DNA of 63,977 nucleotides, counting the filler. It is 8 parts of 8 records of this genome, joined end to end, with 100 filler letters (N's around TTAATTAATTAA, not from the genome) between each part and the next. Parts side by side here need not be neighbours in the genome. Positions count along the whole stretch, not along the records: positions 51,708 to 58,647 come from SRR31147125_12409; 7 more parts are not named here. The stretch is one strand, 5' to 3'. The position numbers were made by a program, and so were the translations under genes. Under the pieces are notes generated by a model. That model was given only the letters and a program-made list of their open reading frames with translations. It ran no database searches and was not told where the DNA came from. Each line of letters starts with the position of its first letter. The first letter of the stretch is position 1. Shown piece after piece: positions 51,608-60,037 of this stretch.

Positions 51608-51707
51608 NNNNNNNNNNNNNNNNNNNNNNNNNNNNNNNNNNNNNNNNNNNNTTAATTAATTAANNNNNNNNNNNNNNNNNNNNNNNNNNNNNNNNNNNNN
51701 NNNNNNN

Positions 51708-53084
51708 TTCTTTTAAACTGATGGAATTTACAATGGCCTTCCCTTGCAAACATTTCAATCCTGCCTCAATCACGTTCCACTTCGACGAGTCGATCATAAT
51801 AGGCAGTTTGGCAATGTCGGGTTCTGCCATAATCAGGTTAAGGAACGTCACCATTTCCTTTTCGGCATCTAACATGGCATCGTCCATATTTACGTCGATT
51901 ACCTGCGCGCCGTTTTCAACCTGGGCACGTGCAATTGAAAGCGCTTCTTCGTATTTTTCTTCGCGAATAAGGCGGGCAAATTTACGCGAACCAGCCACGT
52001 TACATCGCTCACCAATATTAACAAAATTGGTATTTTCGGTTATAGTTACCGGTTCCAGTCCACTCAATCGGGTATTTAGATTGGTCTCAACTACCGCGTG
52101 AGGCTGTGCTGATTTGGCAATTTCAGCAAACGCTTTTATATGCTCTGGAGTGGTTCCGCAACAGCCTCCAATAATATTTATAAATTGATTGTCGAGATAA
52201 TCTTTTATTTTGCCGGCCATAATTTCCGCACTCTGGTCGTATTCGCCAAACTGGTTGGGCAGCCCCGCATTTGGGTGTGCACTAATATTGAACGGTGCCT
52301 TTTTCGATAGTTCTTTTACATAAGGACGTAAATCAGTTGCCCCCAACGAGCAGTTCAATCCTACACTCAGCAAGTCGACATGCGACACGGAGTTTAGAAA
52401 TGCTTCCAATGTTTGTCCCGAAAGTGTACGACCGCTGGCGTCGGTAATAGTTCCCGAAACCATCAGCGGAAGTTTCATATTTCTTGCTTCCAGCGCTTCT
52501 TCAATGGCAAAAATTGCAGCTTTTGCATTTAAGGTATCAAACACGGTTTCGATTATCAACAAATCAACGCCGCCATCAATCAGCCCATCCGCCTGTTCGC
52601 GGTAAGCACCTTTCACCTCATCGAATGAAATAGCACGGTAACCGGGGTCGTTTACATCGGGTGAAAGCGACAATGTTTTATTGGTTGGCCCTAAAGAACC
52701 TGCGACATAACGTGGCTTTTCTGGATTTTGCCTGGTGAATTCTTCTGCAAGTCCACTTGCAATCTCTGCAGAGACTTTATTCATCTCGTATACAAAATCC
52801 TCCGTTCCGTAATCGGCCTGCGAAATTCGGGTAGCATTGAAAGTGTTTGTTAGGAGAATATCGGCACCTGCTTCCAAATATTTTTTATGAATTTCTTTAA
52901 TAATTTCAGGATGCGTAATCGATAAAATATCATTGTTCCCCTTTTGATCATTAGGGTGATTTTTTAGTCGTTCGCCATGATAATCGGCATCGGTTAATTT
53001 ATATTCCTGAATTAACGATCCCATTGCCCCGTCCATTACAAGTACGCGAGTTTTGAGTTCGTTACGTATATCTTTTTTCTTCAT
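51708..53084 (-). CDS. metH: B12-dependent methionine synthase, 3' truncated
   Basis: [32 protein letters not shown] and DSSKW. Confidence 0.96.
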
Positions 53085-53124
53085 TTGTGTTTCTCTTTTC
53101 TCAATTCCTACCTGTTCTTTTTTC

Positions 53125-53154
53125 AAATTTCCCCTTGAGGGGATTATGGGGTGA
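53125..53154 (+). repeat. REP-like palindromic repeat, copy A
   Basis: AAATTTCCCCTTGAGGGGATTATGGGGTGA; contains the DUF559 stop codon. Confidence 0.65.
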
Positions 53155-53545
53155 TTTTATTTCTTTCTTGTTCTTCAAGTTCCGTAATATAATGCTCTAA
53201 AGTGATACGAACATTATATAAATTATTAAGAACTTCTTGATTATGAAAGCGAATAATATTATACCCCATTTTTACTAATTCTTCTTCTCTCTTTTTATCT
53301 TTCTTCTTTTGAAAACGATGAATAGTACCGTCTAATTCTATTATCATTTTTAAATCTTTACAGAAAAAATCAACGATATAGTTTCCAATTGGTCTTTGTC
53401 TTAAAAATGAATATCCTTTTAGTTGCTTTCGTTTTAGAACTTTATCCCATAGAATAACCTCACTCAAAGTTGAGTTATTCCTAAGTTTCCTTGCGAACTC
53501 CTTTAAATTTTTGTTATAGTGGCTATTTGAATGTTTTTCTGTCAT
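53144..53545 (-). CDS. DUF559 (Vsr-like) endonuclease domain protein
   Basis: [38 protein letters not shown] and IIRFHN. Confidence 0.92.
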
Positions 53546-53552
53546 CTATTTT

Positions 53553-53583
53553 ACATCCCCCTACCCCCTTTAAAAGGGAGATT
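53553..53583 (-). repeat. REP-like palindromic repeat, copy B (inverted relative to A)
   Basis: Reverse complement AATCTCCCTTTTAAAGGGGGTAGGGGGATGT; immediately upstream of the DUF559 start. Confidence 0.65.
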
Positions 53584-53631
53584 CGAATAAAGATCCTGTC
53601 CCAAAATTTATGGTAATATGACTTTTCAAAA

Positions 53632-54384
53632 TTATTTTAAAATCCGAATCTCATTCTCGCCCTTAATTCCAACCTTATCCTCGCAAATAATTAGCAACGA
53701 CTGTATTTCGGGAATATTTTCAGCTTGTTTAATTACTTTTTCAACATGATTTGGCGATTTAACTTTATTACCCAGTGCCGTTGCAAAAGCATCTGCCAAC
53801 AAAATATCTTCGCAAACCACTACCACGGCATCAGCTTTCCCATAACTTATCGATGGCCCAACTGTTCCGGCCGAAGTACAAATTCCCAATTTGTTATTTT
53901 TCGCAGGAATTACCAATCCAATTCGTTCCGAAAGAATCGACTCGCCGGCAAAAACCGAAAGAACCAATTCGTCTTGCAACTGCACATAAATGTCGCCACC
54001 GTTCTCTACAACCAACTCCTGCACCGAAAAATTTTTGAGAATTTCTTCGCCAACCTCGCGGGCAAATAAACCTGCCACTGCCGACATCGGTCCTATTCCG
54101 GCTTTTTCAGCAGCAGTTGCCATTTCACTTGTTTCTGCAGGAGCAATTTCCGACGGATGAAATGGTTTCAGGCTCTTTTTAAAGAATGGCTCCTTTTCAA
54201 TATATTCATCAAATAACTTCCTCAAAGCTTCCGCTTTTGTCAGGGACAATTCCTTCATACCATCATCAAACGATTCCGAATCGACACCAATCCACAAATC
54301 AGTTTCAAGAAATTTTATTTCAAAGCCTTTAAATCGCTCTGAATTGAATTGGGTGCGATATGTTCTTTCTTCGAATAAATTCAT
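53632..54384 (-). CDS. UPF0280/COG2122 ApbE-like protein (MA1715-like)
   Basis: ETDLWIG, GIGPMSAVAG, ENGGDI, GICTSAGTVGPS.SYGKAD and ADAFATALGN. Confidence 0.9.
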   Translation of the reverse strand: MNLFEERTYRTQFNSERFKGFEIKFLETDLWIGVDSESFDDGMKELSLTKAEALRKLFDEYIEKEPFFKKSLKPFHPSEIAPAETSEMATAAEKAGIGPMSAVAGLFAREVGEEILKNFSVQELVVENGGDIYVQLQDELVLSVFAGESILSERIGLVIPAKNNKLGICTSAGTVGPSISYGKADAVVVVCEDILLADAFATALGNKVKSPNHVEKVIKQAENIPEIQSLLIICEDKVGIKGENEIRILK

Positions 54385-55514
54385 AAAATGTTCTTTCTAA
54401 ACCAAATTTCAAAAAGAGGATCGATAAATAAAATTTCATTTTTAGCTATATCAATAATATCTTTTCCTTCCAATATTTTTTTGTTTTTTAAAATGTTTCG
54501 AGGAGTTCCAATGTTGTACTCCTGCATAGTTTTTTGAGCAGTTAGCTGTATTTCTCCATTTGACATAGCTTTTAGCAAGTTAACCTGGGTTTTGCTTAAC
54601 TCCTCAATAATTTTTAGAAAAAATGCCGAGTTAGACGTTTGCATAAATTCAAGTGAATAATCAATTACATCGGCAGTCACTTTTTTCCCCGAGAACGACC
54701 AAACAAAATGCGCTAACTGCTGCACGTAATGCGGATGATTTTTCATCTTCGAAACAATGTCAAGGACAAGTTCCCGGTCGATTGTCTTTTTGCTTTGTTC
54801 AAATTTGTCGGAAATAAATTTTTCCCAATGCTCGGTGCCTATTCTCCCTAAAGTAAATTGCGACCCAAAACGATAAAACGGCTTATCGGTTTGTTCAAAA
54901 ATTTCACGCATCATGTGGCGTTTGCTCCCATACATGCAATACGAAACATCTTTGTGCTTCTGCCAAACTGAACGCAATAGTTTTTGAAATTCAATACTAT
55001 TGTCGAAAGAACTTACGTTTTGAAACTCATCGAGATAGATAATTATCTTTTTATTTCTCTTTTGAGCAATTACCTGAGGTAGTTCTAACACCTCAGTTTT
55101 ATATTTTTTAATTTCTTTTACATCGAAAGAAACCGAAAAATCATTTAAAGGATCGGTACCGATTGAAATTCGTGGTGTTAGCTGTTTGAAAAATATTTTT
55201 GCACTGTTTAGCCATTCTTCGAGCTTTCTTGATGAACACTTGATTAGTTCTCTTGAAAAAACTTCGTAAAAATCATCTTCGTTTTGTATGCTAAACAGGT
55301 CTATCATACAGTGTATAATATCATTATCATCGCTATTTCTCAGAATAAATTGCTGTACAAGTGAAGATTTGCCATACCTGCGTGGCGACATGATTATTAA
55401 ATTATTGCCACTGAATAGATTGGCTTCAAGAAGAGCAACCTCCTGATGTCGGTTTGTGAACTCATTAGAATCTACAATTTGCCCAAACCTAAAAGGCGAA
55501 ACATTTCTTACCAT
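54381..55514 (-). CDS. AAA-family (archaeal ATPase-like) ATP-binding protein with C-terminal wHTH-like region
   Basis: PFRFG, FTNR, SPRRYGKSSL Walker A, LDEFQ Walker B, HPHYVQ and DPLFEIW. Confidence 0.85.
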   Translation of the reverse strand: MVRNVSPFRFGQIVDSNEFTNRHQEVALLEANLFSGNNLIIMSPRRYGKSSLVQQFILRNSDDNDIIHCMIDLFSIQNEDDFYEVFSRELIKCSSRKLEEWLNSAKIFFKQLTPRISIGTDPLNDFSVSFDVKEIKKYKTEVLELPQVIAQKRNKKIIIYLDEFQNVSSFDNSIEFQKLLRSVWQKHKDVSYCMYGSKRHMMREIFEQTDKPFYRFGSQFTLGRIGTEHWEKFISDKFEQSKKTIDRELVLDIVSKMKNHPHYVQQLAHFVWSFSGKKVTADVIDYSLEFMQTSNSAFFLKIIEELSKTQVNLLKAMSNGEIQLTAQKTMQEYNIGTPRNILKNKKILEGKDIIDIAKNEILFIDPLFEIWFRKNIL

Positions 55515-55535
55515 TTTTCATAACATTAAAAAATC

Positions 55536-55581
55536 ATAATACCATTTGGTATTATACCGGATGGTATTATACTCAAAGGTA
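55536..55581 (-). promoter_or_regulatory. Internal Bacteroidota promoter and operator for the ATPase gene
   Basis: TACCTTTG (-7, 55574-55581); palindrome ATAATACCA-TT-TGGTATTAT (55536-55555) plus a second TGGTATTATAC (55562-55572). Confidence 0.65.
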
Positions 55582-55589
55582 TAACAATT

Positions 55590-56000
55590 TTATCTAAAAT
55601 CTATCTCAAATAAATTCAACGGGCATGCCGGAATACAAAGTTCGCAAACTACACATTTACTTTTGTCGAATTCCAGTTTCCATGTTTCTTTATTCATGGT
55701 TAAAGCACCGGCAAAACACACGGCAGTGCAATTCCCGCAGTCAATACATTTCTCTTCTTTCCAGCTTATTCGTTTATCGAGCGATTCGCAGGTAATTTTG
55801 TTGCTTTTAATGTATTCTACACCTTTTTCAATGTTATCCTTTTTCCCTTGAAGTTCCAACAGAAGACTACCTCGTTTCCCGGGATAAACTTCCGCTTTCA
55901 GTATATTTATTCTAAGATCGTAATCTTTTACAAGGTGATATGTAAATGCTTTATCTCCACTTTGAGGTGGAAAATTCAGGATGTATCTTTTCTTAATCAT
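55590..56000 (-). CDS. NIL domain-ferredoxin (MA1822-like)
   Basis: N-terminal NIL (LVKDYDLRINILKAEV); two CxxCxxCxxxC clusters. Confidence 0.92.
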   Translation of the reverse strand: MIKKRYILNFPPQSGDKAFTYHLVKDYDLRINILKAEVYPGKRGSLLLELQGKKDNIEKGVEYIKSNKITCESLDKRISWKEEKCIDCGNCTAVCFAGALTMNKETWKLEFDKSKCVVCELCIPACPLNLFEIDFR

Positions 56001-57156
56001 TGTCGGCCTCCGTTTCGTCTAATCCGTTTAACGATGTATTGGTTGGAAACATTTGCACGGGCTTGCTCACTTCAAATTCGCTGTTTTGCAGCCATTTTTT
56101 TAATTCGTCGGCAATTTTGCGTGCTTTTGCCAAACTGGCAACCGGGGCAGTCCGTATCTTTTTCCCTTTCACTTTTATCGAACCACTTTGAAGTTCTTCG
56201 TATGTAACCTGCCCTAATTTTGGTGTTCCAACGGTTCCATAATCCAGTACCGAAGTTTCAATCTGGCTATTGTTTATCGATACGCGTTTAGCAATATCGG
56301 CATTCAACATCGGAATAGGAATTCCAATTCCCACAAACATACTTACCCCATATTTTTCGTAATATGCTGCCTGAATATAATCGGCCGACATTTCTTTTAA
56401 ATTACCCATTACAGCAATAGTTGCAGCATTGGTTACCGGCACTCCTAAATCGTTTTTTGGGCGTGTGGTATGAAACTGCGTCCCCGGCCAAACCACAAAT
56501 CCTTGTGTTCCACCAAGAAAAATTCGTGTTCCCAAACCAATAGTTTTAAACTCAGGATCATTCAACAACGGGCTTAACTCTCCCGAAGTTGAATAGGTTG
56601 CATTACGCAAATTTGGGAGTAAAGTTCCCATGTAAGTATGCTTAATTTTGGGCGTGGTATTTACAGCCACATTGTAATTTTGGTAAGCATTTCGTGGATT
56701 AAAAAGTGTAAACTCGTTAACCGTATTAATATTAATTGTGGTTTTTATATGTTTGCGCGGATAGCAATCGGTTCCTTTTGCCCAGGCTTCCAGAACAACA
56801 TCTTTCCCTTCTAACATATCTTGAATAACGTGCGCACCTCCGTATTCCGGATTATCAGGATCGCAAGCAGTTGCGCCAATGTACGAATCAACAGCAGCCA
56901 ATCCCTCGTAACATGGCACTCCGTTCAATCGAATTTTTTCCATTCGGATAGGTGGGTCGGCATGACCAAAATTTATTATAGCCCCCGACGAGCACATAGC
57001 TCCAAAAGTGGCAGTGGTTACTACATCCACTTTTTCAACAATTTCTTCCGGCGACATTTCTTTCGCCATTTCCGAAACCTCTTCGGCAGTTAGCACTACG
57101 GCCTCGCCCGATTTAAGTTTCTGATTAATTTCTTCGTATGTTTTTACTTTTGACAT
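55993..57156 (-). CDS. DUF39 homocysteine biosynthesis protein (aspartate-semialdehyde sulfurtransferase, MA1821/MJ0100-like, no CBS domains)
   Basis: KTYEEIN, VDVVTTATFGAMCSSG, YGGAHVI, GTDCYP, NPRNAYQNY and GELSPLLNDP. Confidence 0.93.
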   Translation of the reverse strand: MSKVKTYEEINQKLKSGEAVVLTAEEVSEMAKEMSPEEIVEKVDVVTTATFGAMCSSGAIINFGHADPPIRMEKIRLNGVPCYEGLAAVDSYIGATACDPDNPEYGGAHVIQDMLEGKDVVLEAWAKGTDCYPRKHIKTTININTVNEFTLFNPRNAYQNYNVAVNTTPKIKHTYMGTLLPNLRNATYSTSGELSPLLNDPEFKTIGLGTRIFLGGTQGFVVWPGTQFHTTRPKNDLGVPVTNAATIAVMGNLKEMSADYIQAAYYEKYGVSMFVGIGIPIPMLNADIAKRVSINNSQIETSVLDYGTVGTPKLGQVTYEELQSGSIKVKGKKIRTAPVASLAKARKIADELKKWLQNSEFEVSKPVQMFPTNTSLNGLDETEADND

Positions 57157-57265
57157 ATTTATAATACGAAAGACCAAAGACGGCAGACCGAAGTTAAATC
57201 GCAGTCAATATCTATGTCTTTCCAATTTAAAATTAGACAACGTTTATATCTTGTATTCAAAGCGG

Positions 57266-57343
57266 CTAAAACCGCATTCGCATACACATATTTGCCCCAT
57301 GCAAATAAGTTGTAAAAAATAATTTGTAGTGCAGTATCTTCAT
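57266..57343 (-). CDS. Putative Met/Cys-rich leader peptide MKILHYKLFFTTYLHGANMCMRMRF
   Basis: Manual translation; ATG 13 nt after the riboswitch; ATG-TGT-ATG-CGA-ATG cluster near the stop. Confidence 0.6.
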   Translation of the reverse strand: MKILHYKLFFTTYLHGANMCMRMRF

Positions 57344-57356
57344 GATAGTGTTCAAA

Positions 57357-57452
57357 TTATAATTCCGTTCCCGGCCGGGTATTGGCACCTTTTCATCTTT
57401 CTGAAGGTTGCCAGAGTATCAATGAGCCCGCTCTCTCCTCTCTTCTGTATAA
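57357..57452 (-). ncRNA. SAM-I riboswitch
   Basis: TTATACAGAAG...GAGAGAGCGGGCTC..TGATACTCTGGCAACC...AAGGTGCCAATACC...GGAATTATAA; P1 TTATA/TATAA; upstream of Met biosynthesis genes. Confidence 0.9.
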
Positions 57453-57487
57453 CCAAACACTCTTTATCGAAAGAATATTTGATAGCG

Positions 57488-57517
57488 CAAAGTTAATCGA
57501 AATTGTCATTTTGCAAA
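57488..57517 (-). promoter_or_regulatory. Bacteroidota sigma-A promoter of the met operon
   Basis: TTTG (-33) ... TAACTTTG (-7, TAnnTTTG). Confidence 0.7.
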
Positions 57518-57975
57518 TATTTGCATTTCATTCGCTACATTTCTTAACGAAAGCAATACAGTTTGGGCAGATTGTTATCCGGTAAAAGTGCAGAGATTAC
57601 ATATAGCAATTAAAATGAAACAGAAAATAAGATGCCATGAATATGTTCTTGAAATGTTATAAACCTTCTTGCCCAATTTATTCCTGTTAATAACTTTTAG
57701 TTACATCTCAAAACGCCGAGAATACTATAAAAAGCAACAAGACCGTACCTTTCTTTTAAGTATGGAGGGAAACTTTAGCTGAGCACTTCAAACAATTATC
57801 ATCGGAATGATTTATCTTTAGTAATTCAAAACAGGGTAGCCAAATGGTTACGCGGGGAAGATAAAAAGGAATACTACCGGGGTACACAACTTTAGCGACC
57901 ACCCAATATAATTACATCATAATTCTTTCTGATGTTTTGAGAAACCATTATCACTAATCTAACTCAACGAATGTT

Positions 57976-58599
57976 ATGAGCGACGAAGAGGAATTAAGAA
58001 ATTTAGTTTTAGCCCCATACATTTTAAAGGCAACTGCGCTTATTGGGGTAAACCGAAGAGTCGGAGGAAATCAGTTCAGACATGCCATGGCTACACTCGC
58101 CATTTTGCTTGATTACAAGTACTTCGACAACCATATTCTACTCAAAGCATCGGTAATTCACGACTTATTTGAGGATGTCCCGAAAACCAATATCAATGCG
58201 ATTAAAAATATTGACATTGATGGCCCGAAAGTGGTTAAATTAGTTTTAGAGGTTACTCAAAATAAAGCTGAATCAAAAGATATATTTCTTAACCGAATTA
58301 AAGAAGATGGTTCGGTTAATGCCAAAACGTTAAAAGTTGCCGACAGGATTAGTAATCTCACTGATTTCAACGGTGATATTTTTTCAATCAAAAAAATGGA
58401 AAGAATCCTGGATGAAACTGAAGAATATATCATTCCGATGGCGGAGGAAGTTAATCCAGATCTGGAAAGAGAAATACGAGATTTAGTGAATATTAGACGT
58501 ACAAGACTGAATAACAAAAAAATCATGGTGAAACTAAAGAATTTATTCCGAAAACTCAGGAGCTTATTCCAATCAAACCAAAACGTACAATCTAATTAG
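57976..58599 (+). CDS. HD-domain small alarmone hydrolase-like protein (Mesh1/SpoT HD)
   Basis: R..G..QFRH, IHDLFED, LVLEVT and LKVADRISNL. Confidence 0.75.
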   Translation: MSDEEELRNLVLAPYILKATALIGVNRRVGGNQFRHAMATLAILLDYKYFDNHILLKASVIHDLFEDVPKTNINAIKNIDIDGPKVVKLVLEVTQNKAESKDIFLNRIKEDGSVNAKTLKVADRISNLTDFNGDIFSIKKMERILDETEEYIIPMAEEVNPDLEREIRDLVNIRRTRLNNKKIMVKLKNLFRKLRSLFQSNQNVQSN

Positions 58600-58747
58600 T
58601 ACCAAATGTGCTTTTTCTATTAACCCGAGTTCGACTTAAAATCACGCNNNNNNNNNNNNNNNNNNNNNNNNNNNNNNNNNNNNNNNNNNNNTTAATTAAT
58701 TAANNNNNNNNNNNNNNNNNNNNNNNNNNNNNNNNNNNNNNNNNNNN

Positions 58748-59150
58748 TTTTTCAAACGTGTGAACACCATGCTCGTCGTGACAATGTTCTTTGCAGTACC
58801 AGCCTGTGCAGCAGGCGGTGGAGGAGGCGGCGGCCGTGGCGGCCAGCAAGGGACCTCCGCCGGAAGCGATCGAAGCATGTGTGGACGAGGTCGAAGGTGA
58901 AGTTGTCAGTTTCTGATTACCCGCACCGTCAAGATGAACCTGACAGGCGGTAACATGGGGGAGGTACGGTCGCTGCATATCTGCATGGGATACGTGGGAT
59001 CATTCTTTCTGCTCATCCACCCGTTGCTGATTATCGCGCCGCGTCATTTCGAGGCGGGGTTGTCACCGTATCAGGCATTCATCAAGATCATCTCGACCCG
59101 AACGCCTGGGATCACCACGGGGCTCGTGGCCTGGGGCATGCCGATGCTGC
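58748..59150 (+). pseudogene. Decayed remnants: Gly-rich exported protein (GPPPEAIEAC) and a ferric-reductase-like TM fragment
   Basis: Signal peptide plus poly-G, then PPPEAIEAC in another frame ending in a stop; LH..MGY...LIHPLLIIAPRHFEAG fragment lacking both ends. Confidence 0.45.
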
Positions 59151-59184: not shown

Positions 59185-59397
59185 TCACATCTCATATACC
59201 TCGTCGACAACTGCATCTGCCGGTCGTGTCAACCGCGCCTGTAATTCCATCTCTTCGCGCCTTTCCTCAAGAACCCGGTGTACTTCTTCAGAAATCAGGT
59301 AGGCAAGGCAGACGATCAGGGTGGCGAAACAGCTGTAGAAGAAGAAAATGAGCAGTGAACTGGTGAAAATCGTTTCGATGACATAGGCCGGAGTCAT
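59185..59397 (-). CDS. Small single-TM protein (70 aa), unknown function
   Basis: GGGAGG RBS before ATG 59397; hydrophobic N-half and charged helical C-half. Confidence 0.7.
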   Translation of the reverse strand: MTPAYVIETIFTSSLLIFFFYSCFATLIVCLAYLISEEVHRVLEERREEMELQARLTRPADAVVDEVYEM

Positions 59398-59428
59398 GGC
59401 AGCCTCCCATAGTAATGGTGGAATGAAC

Positions 59429-59467
59429 AAAAAAAATCGCCCATCTTCGAGACCGAAAACAGGCGAT
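59429..59467 (-). terminator. Intrinsic terminator (riboswitch expression platform)
   Basis: ATCGCCTGTTTTCG-GTCT-CGAAGATGGGCGAT followed by a T run. Confidence 0.85.
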
Positions 59468-59485
59468 GCGTTCCTATGGGCATGG

Positions 59486-59575
59486 CCCATCCGTTCGGTA
59501 ACCCGGCTGCCAGAAAGTGCTGGCCCGTGGCTTTGCGTCTCCGGGTCTCCCCGGGTTTGCCGTTTCGTAGATGGC
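59486..59575 (-). ncRNA. c-di-GMP-I (GEMM) riboswitch
   Basis: GGCAAAC-CCGGG-GAGA-CCCGG-AGACGCAAAGCCACGGGCC...GGCAGCCGGGTTACCGAA; P1 CCATC/GATGG. Confidence 0.9.
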
Positions 59576-60037
59576 TTTCTTACCAATTATAGTAAGTATA
59601 CGTGAAAATCAAAACGATTGTCAAGAAACGGATCGGCTTGTGCCTTCATCAGAGCGAAACCGGAAGATTCACCGACTCGGTATCTGTATCTGTGATCTTG
59701 GAGATGTGATATGGCTATCTAATTGAAAAAAGCATAATGTTATCTGAAGTAAAAAGGCTTTTCGGTTTATATCGGGAAGCCTTTTCTATTTTTTGATGGA
59801 ATGGAAGTCTCTTGTGGTCAATGAATGCCATTATGGGGTGTCAGGAGACTAAAATTGTCATTAGTTGTAGAGTATTGCACGTGTGAAAATTCAAGAGTGG
59901 TCTATGTTCCGTTTGCGATAATCACTTGTTTCGTAAATCGGTGAAGAGGAGATTTGCATGAATAATTATGGTATTGGTAATATTTATCGATTAACAAAGA
60001 CTTGCGACCTGGAATACGTGGATAACTATCCAATCTC

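Follow-up and report, generated by a model that had tools for sequence, protein, structure and literature searches.

A SAM-I riboswitch followed by a conserved leader reading frame with a methionine/cysteine end: a possible two-stage leader of a homocysteine-biosynthesis operon

The operon leader and its conservation in relatives

On the minus strand of a 63,977-nucleotide (nt) stretch of DNA, called the window here (eight parts joined with filler, of which positions 51,708 to 58,647 come from SRR31147125_12409), the gene for HcyBio, an enzyme of homocysteine biosynthesis, is preceded by a SAM-I riboswitch aptamer (SAM, S-adenosylmethionine) and by a short upstream open reading frame (uORF) that ends in methionine (Met) and cysteine (Cys) codons (Table 1). 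The uORF is kept in related leaders with substitutions of the coding type. We propose, with slightly less than even confidence, that the leader is a two-stage device of the homocysteine-biosynthesis operon, in which a SAM-gated uORF would be followed by a ribosome step at its Met/Cys end.

Table 1. Features of the leader and of the operon behind it (positions along the window)
Feature	Position	Strand	Basis or remark
SAM-I riboswitch aptamer	57455-57354	minus	Rfam SAM RF00162, 65.4 bits (cut-off 44.4), E 5.8e-13, full model 1-108/108
A/U-rich linker, 10 nt, aptamer to uORF start, GAACACUAUC	57344-57353	minus	spacing 7-14 nt in 51/52 leaders
uORF, 25 codons + TAG, MKILHYKLFFTTYLHGANMCMRMRF	57266-57343	minus	in 51/51 long-leader relatives; coding-type substitutions
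Met/Cys codon cluster M19-C20-M21-R22-M23, C20-M21 being the conserved core	57275-57289	minus	row conservation
H1, predicted hairpin inside the uORF, Y-L-H codons paired with C-M-R codons	57275-57307	minus	-10.2 kcal/mol, z -2.4; RNAalifold
H2, predicted hairpin with the stop codon in its loop, 13-pair stem	57253-57285	minus	core GCGG-UUUUAG-CCGC at 57262-57275
3' leader hairpin (predicted), purine box GAAAGAC paired with GUCUUUC, the last unit of the C/U-rich tract	57168-57222	minus	-15.2 kcal/mol, z -2.0
HcyBio (formerly DUF39), homocysteine biosynthesis enzyme, sulfur incorporation, 387 aa	55993-57156	minus	Pfam PF01837, E 1.9e-146; ATG at 57156
Second operon gene, NIL domain + 4Fe-4S ferredoxin, 136 aa	55590-56000	minus	Pfam PF09383 + PF00037; overlaps the end of the HcyBio gene

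The RF00162 match is a SAM-I riboswitch by its model score and by its genomic position, the 5' leader of a sulfur amino acid gene (HcyBio with the NIL/ferredoxin gene), a position repeated in 69 of 80 relatives; binding of SAM is predicted. In the genomes of five relatives there was a single SAM-I match per genome, at the HcyBio gene (150 scored of about 360-440 first-look candidates). The ATG of the uORF (57343-57341) lies 10 nt beyond the Rfam match and 13 nt beyond the last paired base of the closing helix P1, and its stop is the TAG at 57268-57266. Internal Met codons occur only at positions 19, 21 and 23 and Cys only at position 20, so that the tail reads M-C-M-R-M-R-F and the last 7 codons hold three Met and one Cys. 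From the stop to the HcyBio ATG the spacer measures 109 nt; the 3' leader hairpin, whose 3' side is formed by the C/U-rich tract, ends 11 nt ahead of that AUG. An earlier note, made from the letters of this DNA, had described a SAM-I element with a 25-codon frame starting 13 nt past P1, an M-C-M-R-M cluster before its stop, a GCGG-TTTTAG-CCGC hairpin over the stop, some 110 nt with a further hairpin and a C/U-rich tract, and no classic U-tailed terminator. The Rfam match, the frame at 57343-57266, codons 19-23, the core hairpin with the stop in its loop, the length and folding of the spacer and the terminator scans reported below all agree with that description.

The relatives were 80 loci encoding enzymes 75-94% identical to HcyBio, all from Prolixibacteraceae (e.g., Draconibacterium, Maribellus, Mariniphaga). 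Besides the 69 with a SAM-I aptamer detected by Rfam upstream of the gene, there were 11 others: four with too little upstream sequence, one of which (L045) still shows the tail of the uORF, and seven with at least 330 nt upstream, in which neither aptamer nor uORF was found (uORF without aptamer, 0/7). Long leaders, with 136-385 nt from aptamer to gene, were present at 51 loci, and the uORF is found in every one of them. Since it is kept in 51/51 related long leaders, the uORF is taken as more than chance. Its start codon is ATG in 50 of these leaders and TTG in one (L076), and it begins 7-14 nt past the aptamer in all but one of the 52 leaders. In the exception, L024, the conserved uORF is pushed away from the aptamer by an insertion of about 92 nt (L024:2705-2806), whose own 28-codon ORF now lies beside the aptamer; this locus offers a natural test of the importance of adjacency.

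The frame is open in 52/52 leaders, and length changes preserve it. In 48 of them the stop falls 0, 1 or 4 codons beyond the Cys-Met core, three (L020, L030, L032) having it directly after Cys-Met; in two (L006, L007) the stop is lost and the frame runs on. Cys is replaced by Ser in L033 and by Phe in L075, and the relatives' uORFs hold 0-2 Cys in all. A Pfam search with the 25-residue peptide gave no match. We hold it as very probable that the uORF is genuine, is translated and belongs to the control region.

Among the 69 leaders with an aptamer, 18 have neither uORF nor spacer, and the ATG of HcyBio itself lies 11-37 nt past the aptamer. In several of these short leaders the linker words known from the long form persist, and right behind them comes the A/U-rich stretch otherwise found ahead of the gene; uORF and spacer have therefore been excised. 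The fixed spacing of 7-14 nt and the 18 short-leader variants together argue that the AUG beside P1 is the regulated start. The aptamer thus most likely gates translation at the adjacent AUG, and for the uORF itself gating of its initiation is likely, as the earlier note had suggested.

Coding signature, RNA structure and the order-wide survey

For the analysis of substitutions, frames were anchored on the Cys-Met core, giving 50 distinct rows from the 52 leaders. The final Met is kept in all 50, and both the Cys and an Asn two codons before it in 48; the expectation that homologous leaders would share the uORF with its Met/Cys tail was thus borne out. A Leu 12 codons before Cys is also kept in 48 of the 50 rows, by way of TTA, TTG, CTT, CTA, CTC and CTG, and one Ser site is maintained through AGT, AGC and TCT. 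All four bases occur at the third position of an Ala/Ser site, and codons for Asn, Cys, His and Phe differ at the third base only. Over a 14-codon block, the ratio of nonsynonymous to synonymous proportions (pN/pS, summed pairwise Nei-Gojobori proportions) was 0.29 in frame versus 0.83 and 1.23 in the other frames, crude figures because the pairs are non-independent and pS is close to saturation, with a frame contrast that is clear all the same. The substitution pattern is that of a translated sequence, and it is from this coding signature that we infer translation. Constraints at the RNA level act on the uORF region as well in clade A, in which the words AAAUUAUU, AAUAUGUGUAUG and GCGGUUUUAACCGC are near-invariant.

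Two of the predicted hairpins involve the end of the uORF. H1 and the extended H2 overlap, the former with its 3' arm and the latter with its 5' arm, and H2 together with a small upstream hairpin forms a 59-nt stretch folding at -19.6 kcal/mol (z -2.8). In 32 sequences, 97.4% of the cells are paired for H1 and 98.4% for H2, as predicted by RNAalifold. H2 is kept even in the three leaders with the earlier stop. In the window, the long form of H1 and the extended H2 have the AUGCGAAU segment in common; covariation is minimal. In clade B (L055-L079), H2 is missing, the uORF ends in ...C-M-C or C-M-R and H1 reaches the stop. Nearer the gene, six relatives (L001, L007, L009, L016, L023, L026) present a hairpin of -13 to -18 kcal/mol between a purine box and CUUCC repeats, then a U run, 13-14 nt before the ATG. 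A permissive Rfam search of 57100-57360, downstream of the aptamer, returned chance-level miRNA matches only (E 0.19 and 6.6), so the uORF and hairpin region is not assigned to a known Rfam family.

Two further pairings were considered and rejected. The invariant AAAUUAU of the uORF could pair with AUAAUUU of the 3' strand of P1, a helix which is all A-U, limited to clade A and lost in clade B. The minimum-energy fold of the full leader also joins the purine-rich 5' half of the aptamer to the C/U-rich tract in a long-range helix, which was set aside because base composition alone makes such pairing likely. We also observed 2-4 CUUCC(G/A)A repeats just before the gene in ten clade A leaders (L001, L002, L016, L018, L019, L022, L023, L026, L031, L035); the repeat region lies about 135 nt past the aptamer, and in the window the repeats are degenerate. 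In some clade A leaders a second small ORF (MK...RLRASNFRL) covers these repeats and overlaps the main start. It was discarded as a gene, since its frame varies relative to the main gene and its ATG is absent from the window, and is read as an RNA element.

The same arrangement was then surveyed in a sample of 151 genomes of the order, 47 of which have SAM-I aptamers, at 54 places; 53 of the 54 were analysed, the one left out being already among the loci collected. An ATG-started ORF of 12-60 codons begins +1 to +25 past the aptamer in 33 of these 53 leaders, the main gene occupying that position in five others. These ORFs precede genes for methionine synthase, O-acetylhomoserine sulfhydrylase, aspartate kinase and HcyBio. 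They are mutually unrelated in sequence, and many have tails alike (MRMR, MCMR, MPMSMR, MPMMPMCMH, MDMRGMRM); 15 of the 33 carry at least two Met within their last 8 codons, and many Met tails run straight into a hairpin that lies at the stop or spans it. Widening the permitted range of starts to -12 to +25 brings the number of leaders to 37, four of which enter by an ATG within P1; in the last 8 codons of these 37 ORFs, Met makes up 16.6% and Cys 9.1%, versus 3.0% each in the body of the ORF (binomial p 7e-22 for Met and 5e-7 for Cys, naive values that treat sites as independent). AUG-NNN-AUG clusters number 23, in 19 of the 53 leaders; 18 share the open frame of an AUG beside the aptamer, compared with 0 and 1 in the other frames, and a stop follows within 4 codons for 13/23 versus 3/23 and 5/23 in the other frames. 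The Met-rich tail seen before HcyBio is accordingly found again on unrelated uORFs of other SAM-I leaders of the order.

Two controls gave a different picture. Of 30 leaders of thiamine pyrophosphate (TPP) riboswitches taken from that sample of genomes, three show a short ORF beside the aptamer, and tail Met is absent from all of them. For SAM-I leaders across the phylum, 70 were taken (the 30 best-scoring plus 40 picked among the matches listed); 24 have an adjacent ORF, which never has more than one Met among its last 8 codons, and most look like ordinary hairpin-plus-U platforms. As a separate observation, 19 of these 70 (within L169-L238) carry AUGAUG in the 3' strand of P1, with frames like MMMVCMPFC... 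starting from inside the aptamer, and a conserved word, CAUACCUCUCUU, comes next. The AUGAUG could represent a different arrangement of Met codons or plain RNA pairing.

A possible two-stage mechanism and its rivals

In the two-stage model, the aptamer would first control the access of ribosomes to the AUG 10 nt downstream: with SAM bound and P1 closed, the A/U-rich stretch just before the AUG would be trapped within or against the folded aptamer, leaving the uORF untranslated. When SAM is low, ribosomes would translate the 25 codons, and a ribosome lingering on the AUG/UGU codons would cover the 5' arm of H2, the likeliest cause of lingering being a scarcity of charged Met-tRNA or Cys-tRNA. 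As read from the sequence, this arm begins 9 nt past the invariant Met codon, and the size of a ribosome footprint puts it in reach of a ribosome waiting there. Once H2 is covered, the leader would adopt a form permitting transcription and translation to reach the enzyme gene. If, on the other hand, the ribosome terminates and departs quickly, or if no ribosome comes, H2 and the 3' hairpin would fold, leaving the 109 nt of untranslated spacer open to decay or to an early end of transcription, through Rho or at the 3' hairpin. We infer that P1 occludes the start and that ribosomes stall at the Met/Cys codons, and likewise which state of H2 is on or off and which factor terminates. The parts of the model do not have equal standing: the uORF probably gives the operon a second, ribosome-based control step, that this step reads the supply of Met-tRNA and Cys-tRNA has a chance near or a little under one half, and Rho, which is encoded in both relatives searched, is a rather doubtful candidate for the effector.

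Several observations weigh against this model. Those on the peptide concern the idea that codons are simply counted. With the Met/Cys codons and the H1 arms left out, pN/pS comes to 0.36, and the N-terminal part gives 0.48; selection on amino acids thus covers the whole peptide, which a pure codon sensor would not need. Only one Met and one Cys are near-invariant residues; the Met before Cys is Gly in 8 of the 50 rows, and six codons ahead of Cys the Met frequently gives way to Leu, Ile or Val. In the other uORF families, the position that separates or follows the Mets is occupied mostly by Cys (UGY) or Arg (CGN), and this YGN pattern, readable as a nucleotide motif YAUG-YGN-AUG-YG, hints at a constraint on the RNA. 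Met starvation would, by simple reasoning, also curb initiation at the uORF itself, and 18 relatives dispense with the uORF altogether.

Other observations concern the RNA elements that the model calls upon. In the 32 sequences, no pair of H1 changed on both sides and H1 shows no covariation; the sole double-sided change in H2 is a G:C to C:G found in two related sequences (L045 and L053). The spacer is unconserved between subclades. A consensus scan of the minus strand from 56900 to 58000 found no intrinsic terminator, and a separate scan of the window for hairpins followed by U-tracts gave weak candidates only, the best at -6.7 kcal/mol. The C/G ratio of the window's spacer is 0.89, not C-rich over G; across relatives it ranges from 0.46 to 5.0, mostly above 1, and a composition like that of Rho utilization (Rut) sites was rejected as a diagnostic for this reason. 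With no U-tailed terminator and a C/G of 0.89, neither an intrinsic nor a Rho terminator is evident. The two-input attenuator put forward in the earlier note is therefore upheld in part: the uORF, its Cys-Met core and the fit to gating by the aptamer speak for it, while counting of codons alone is disfavoured by the selection along the whole peptide, the YGN pattern and the Gly in 8 of 50 rows.

Some of these observations feed two rivals, both unlikely in our estimate and to about the same degree. The first allows one input only: the uORF would be merely the expression platform of the riboswitch, in a phylum that does without Shine-Dalgarno pairing, SAM setting its translation, which in turn would protect the leader from Rho or RNases or unfold H1 and H2, and the Met/Cys codons would be by-products of H1, of H2 or of a nucleotide motif, tRNA charging not being read. 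The constant distance from aptamer to AUG and the variants having the main AUG beside the aptamer suit this explanation, as does the fact that the Met/Cys codons make up the 3' arm of H1 and abut H2; the YGN pattern surrounding the Mets keeps it in play. There is also a precedent, the Mbox whose translational platform serves, together with Rho, to control a conserved uORF, as the accessible text presents it (PMC12810186). What it does not account for is that unrelated uORF families before different met genes share only their stop-proximal, Met-rich tail; hairpins specific to each family hardly explain a tail shared by families otherwise unrelated. Nor are such tails seen in TPP leaders or in SAM-I leaders elsewhere in the phylum.

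The second rival is an arrest peptide, whose 14-residue segment ending in N-M-C-M would act in the exit tunnel and, like TnaC and SpeFL, halt elongation or termination close to the stop, either by itself or together with a small molecule; the stalled ribosome would mask H2 or a Rho loading site. It stays alive because selection is peptide-wide, purifying selection on amino acids extending across the block to sites outside the Met/Cys codons and the H1 arms (the 0.36 given above), and it fits a conserved block made of the 14 codons up to Cys-Met with a stop 0, 1 or 4 codons on in 48/52 leaders. Shielding of Rut sites by ribosomes stalled at the uORF stop is established for tnaC and speFL according to the portion of PMC12360218 available to us. 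On the other side, no likeness to a known arrest motif was seen, no dedicated test having been made, and Pfam was empty; switching on by a ligand suits catabolic operons and not biosynthetic ones, unless the ligand is a signal of shortage; and the other uORF families are wholly different save for the Met tail. In a broader version, which we also regard as unlikely, Met/Cys-tailed peptides would be the expression platform of SAM-I in Bacteroidales, which lack Shine-Dalgarno sequences, and the N-M-C-M segment would arrest near the stop in dependence on Met/Cys-tRNA or on a sulfur metabolite. If true, this would be the first methionine-responsive arrest peptide, and one leader would compute "SAM low AND methionine or cysteine low".

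Two other explanations fare much worse. A functional micropeptide of 21-25 residues rich in His, Cys and Met (e.g., sulfur- or metal-related), encoded as the first gene of a SAM-regulated operon, would account for conservation at the amino-acid level, and the uORF controlled by the Mtb (Mycobacterium tuberculosis) Mbox is discussed as a small protein of unknown role in the available text of PMC12810186. We consider it improbable here, as the uORF is never found away from the aptamer (0/7 aptamer-less loci), is dispensable in 18 relatives, matches no Pfam family and has its stop inside a conserved hairpin, and as the peptides before different met genes are unrelated, having their Met-rich end alone in common. 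An untranslated expression platform in which the open frame is incidental is more improbable still: it would agree with the conserved H1 and H2 and with the high nucleotide identity of clade A, some synonymous sites included (AAAUUAUU being invariant), and it is contradicted by a frame open in 52/52 leaders with frame-preserving length changes, by the in-frame pN/pS (0.29 versus 0.83 and 1.23), by Leu and Ser kept through unrelated codons and by AUG clusters lying in the adjacent-start frame (18/23 versus 0 and 1).

Neighbouring features, known systems and biological meaning

Around the leader, a few other elements were recorded. About 33 nt upstream of the aptamer, TAACTTTG (57488-57495, minus strand) fits the word TAnnTTTG, which we take to be the Bacteroides-type -7 promoter word, and on that basis it is read as a candidate promoter element; a sigma-70 promoter scan found nothing relevant. 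Downstream, a MetH-like ORF of 488 residues (51660-53126, minus) has only the homocysteine S-methyltransferase and pterin-binding domains; it is far shorter than a full cobalamin-dependent methionine synthase and may be a split or truncated form. Between it and the HcyBio/ferredoxin pair lie an AAA ATPase gene (54381-55514, minus), a gene for a 250-residue protein without a Pfam family (53632-54384, minus) and one for a DUF559 endonuclease-like protein (53144-53545, minus). These three genes, at 53144-55514, look foreign to a met operon and may be an inserted element. Elsewhere in the window there is a complete cyclic di-GMP (c-di-GMP-I) riboswitch aptamer (59494-59571, minus; RF01051, 66.1 bits versus a cut-off of 35), and the ORFs downstream of it on the same strand (59188-59586, overlapping the aptamer, and 58703-58978) gave no convincing Pfam match. 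Finally, the Acido-Lenti-1 motif (RF01687, 39.6-45.1 bits versus a cut-off of 37) was seen in five relatives (L002, L007, L009, L011, L038), on the opposite strand and about 1-3.8 kb downstream of the HcyBio start; the Rfam scan of the window gave no match to it. A search of sequencing runs for this DNA gave no RNA run; one DNA run, which may be the source sample, contains it in full and six contain a small share of its sequence words, a result without bearing on expression.

The leader combines two known kinds of control, the riboswitch-gated uORF and the leader-peptide attenuator. Met operons are usually described as run by SAM riboswitches, T-boxes or MetJ, and a T-box search in five relatives found none. 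The classical leader-peptide attenuators include trpL, pheL, thrL, leuL and the Bacteroid-trp motif; we know of no such attenuator for methionine, to our knowledge textbooks do not include one, and none turned up in the literature search. The attenuators, among which hisL is listed in the available part of PMC12360218, share with the window a short ORF and codons of the end product clustered near the stop; they have overlapping alternative hairpins, which for the window are predicted. The window has a short leader ORF with clustered pathway codons, its translation being deduced from the coding signature; it differs in having no U-tailed terminator, in an ORF that would be gated by a riboswitch and in selection on the whole peptide.

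As to riboswitch-gated uORFs, the pe20 Mbox of M. tuberculosis acts by way of a translational platform and Rho on rv1805A, a conserved uORF (PMC12810186, as far as its text was accessible). The likeness is that the aptamer stands directly before a conserved small ORF, 10 nt in the window, and that control of ORF translation is proposed to be followed by transcription of the downstream operon (PMC12810186, same portion). The ligand there is Mg2+, the phylum is another one, and the accessible portion of that article does not describe the uORF as having codons matching the pathway (PMC12810186). In the window, the uORF ends in Met/Cys codons before a Met-pathway operon, and a role of Rho is predicted only. 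The mgtL uORF of Salmonella is presumably proline-rich. It accompanies the Mg2+ riboswitch of the mgtA leader, and the corA and mgtCBR leaders also combine an RNA sensor with a uORF, in the part of PMC12360218 at hand; in mgtA as here, an RNA sensor goes with a translated uORF, ribosome traffic deciding there on leader folding and Rho-dependent termination (PMC12360218). Ligand and amino acid are different, and the mgtA uORF, as far as the available text goes, lies within the riboswitch folds, versus 10 nt past a complete aptamer here.

Other systems join sulfur amino acids and ribosomes by different routes. In Xanthomonas campestris, uncharged initiator tRNA-Met is a second ligand of the SAM-I riboswitch, so that a met-operon leader joins SAM with a signal of Met-tRNA charging, mainly at the level of translation (PMC7270179, in the part available). 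Its means are direct binding of the tRNA by the platform and sequestration of the Shine-Dalgarno sequence (PMC7270179), whereas here ribosomes would decode the Met/Cys codons of a uORF. Mycobacterial polycysteine short ORFs, which are leaderless, attenuate sulfur genes, stalled ribosomes opening an mRNA structure that controls the downstream genes (bioRxiv 10.1101/834739, from the accessible text). They share sulfur amino acid codons with the leaders studied here and differ by their runs of Cys and the lack of a riboswitch (10.1101/834739), the present uORFs having 1-2 Cys and 2-3 Met past a SAM-I aptamer; that of the window, with one Cys, stands behind a 102-nt aptamer and a 10-nt linker of the same leader. 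TnaC and SpeFL present a conserved peptide, a regulatory site at or near the stop and a held ribosome that shields RNA from Rho; they sense free tryptophan or ornithine and switch on catabolic or decarboxylase genes, in the portion of PMC12360218 consulted, whereas for the present leader both a ligand and an arrest are hypothetical. Selection on the residues preceding a putative stall site was found here, with pN/pS of 0.29 for the block and 0.36 outside Met/Cys and H1.

The earlier note had held the architecture to be undescribed. That is so for the specific pairing, since a full-text literature search (subscription journals and supplements being outside its scope) found no description of a SAM-I riboswitch followed by a Met-rich leader peptide, and not for the general scheme, a riboswitch-gated uORF with Rho being already in print, as far as the accessible text of PMC12810186 goes.

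The natural variants constitute a comparative series, made of 51 leaders with a uORF, 18 aptamer-gene fusions, three early stops, two lost stops and two replacements of Cys, which would be usable in cultivable Draconibacterium and Maribellus strains. Bacteroidota mRNAs are largely devoid of Shine-Dalgarno sequences, and no terminator follows the aptamer here; the arrangement thus offers an answer to how Bacteroidota riboswitches may pass on their decision. If the two-stage model is true, a leader ORF with Met/Cys codons placed in series behind a SAM-I aptamer would add a leader-peptide sensor for methionine, and would show that a single leader can read both a cofactor, SAM, and the supply of amino acids at the ribosome.

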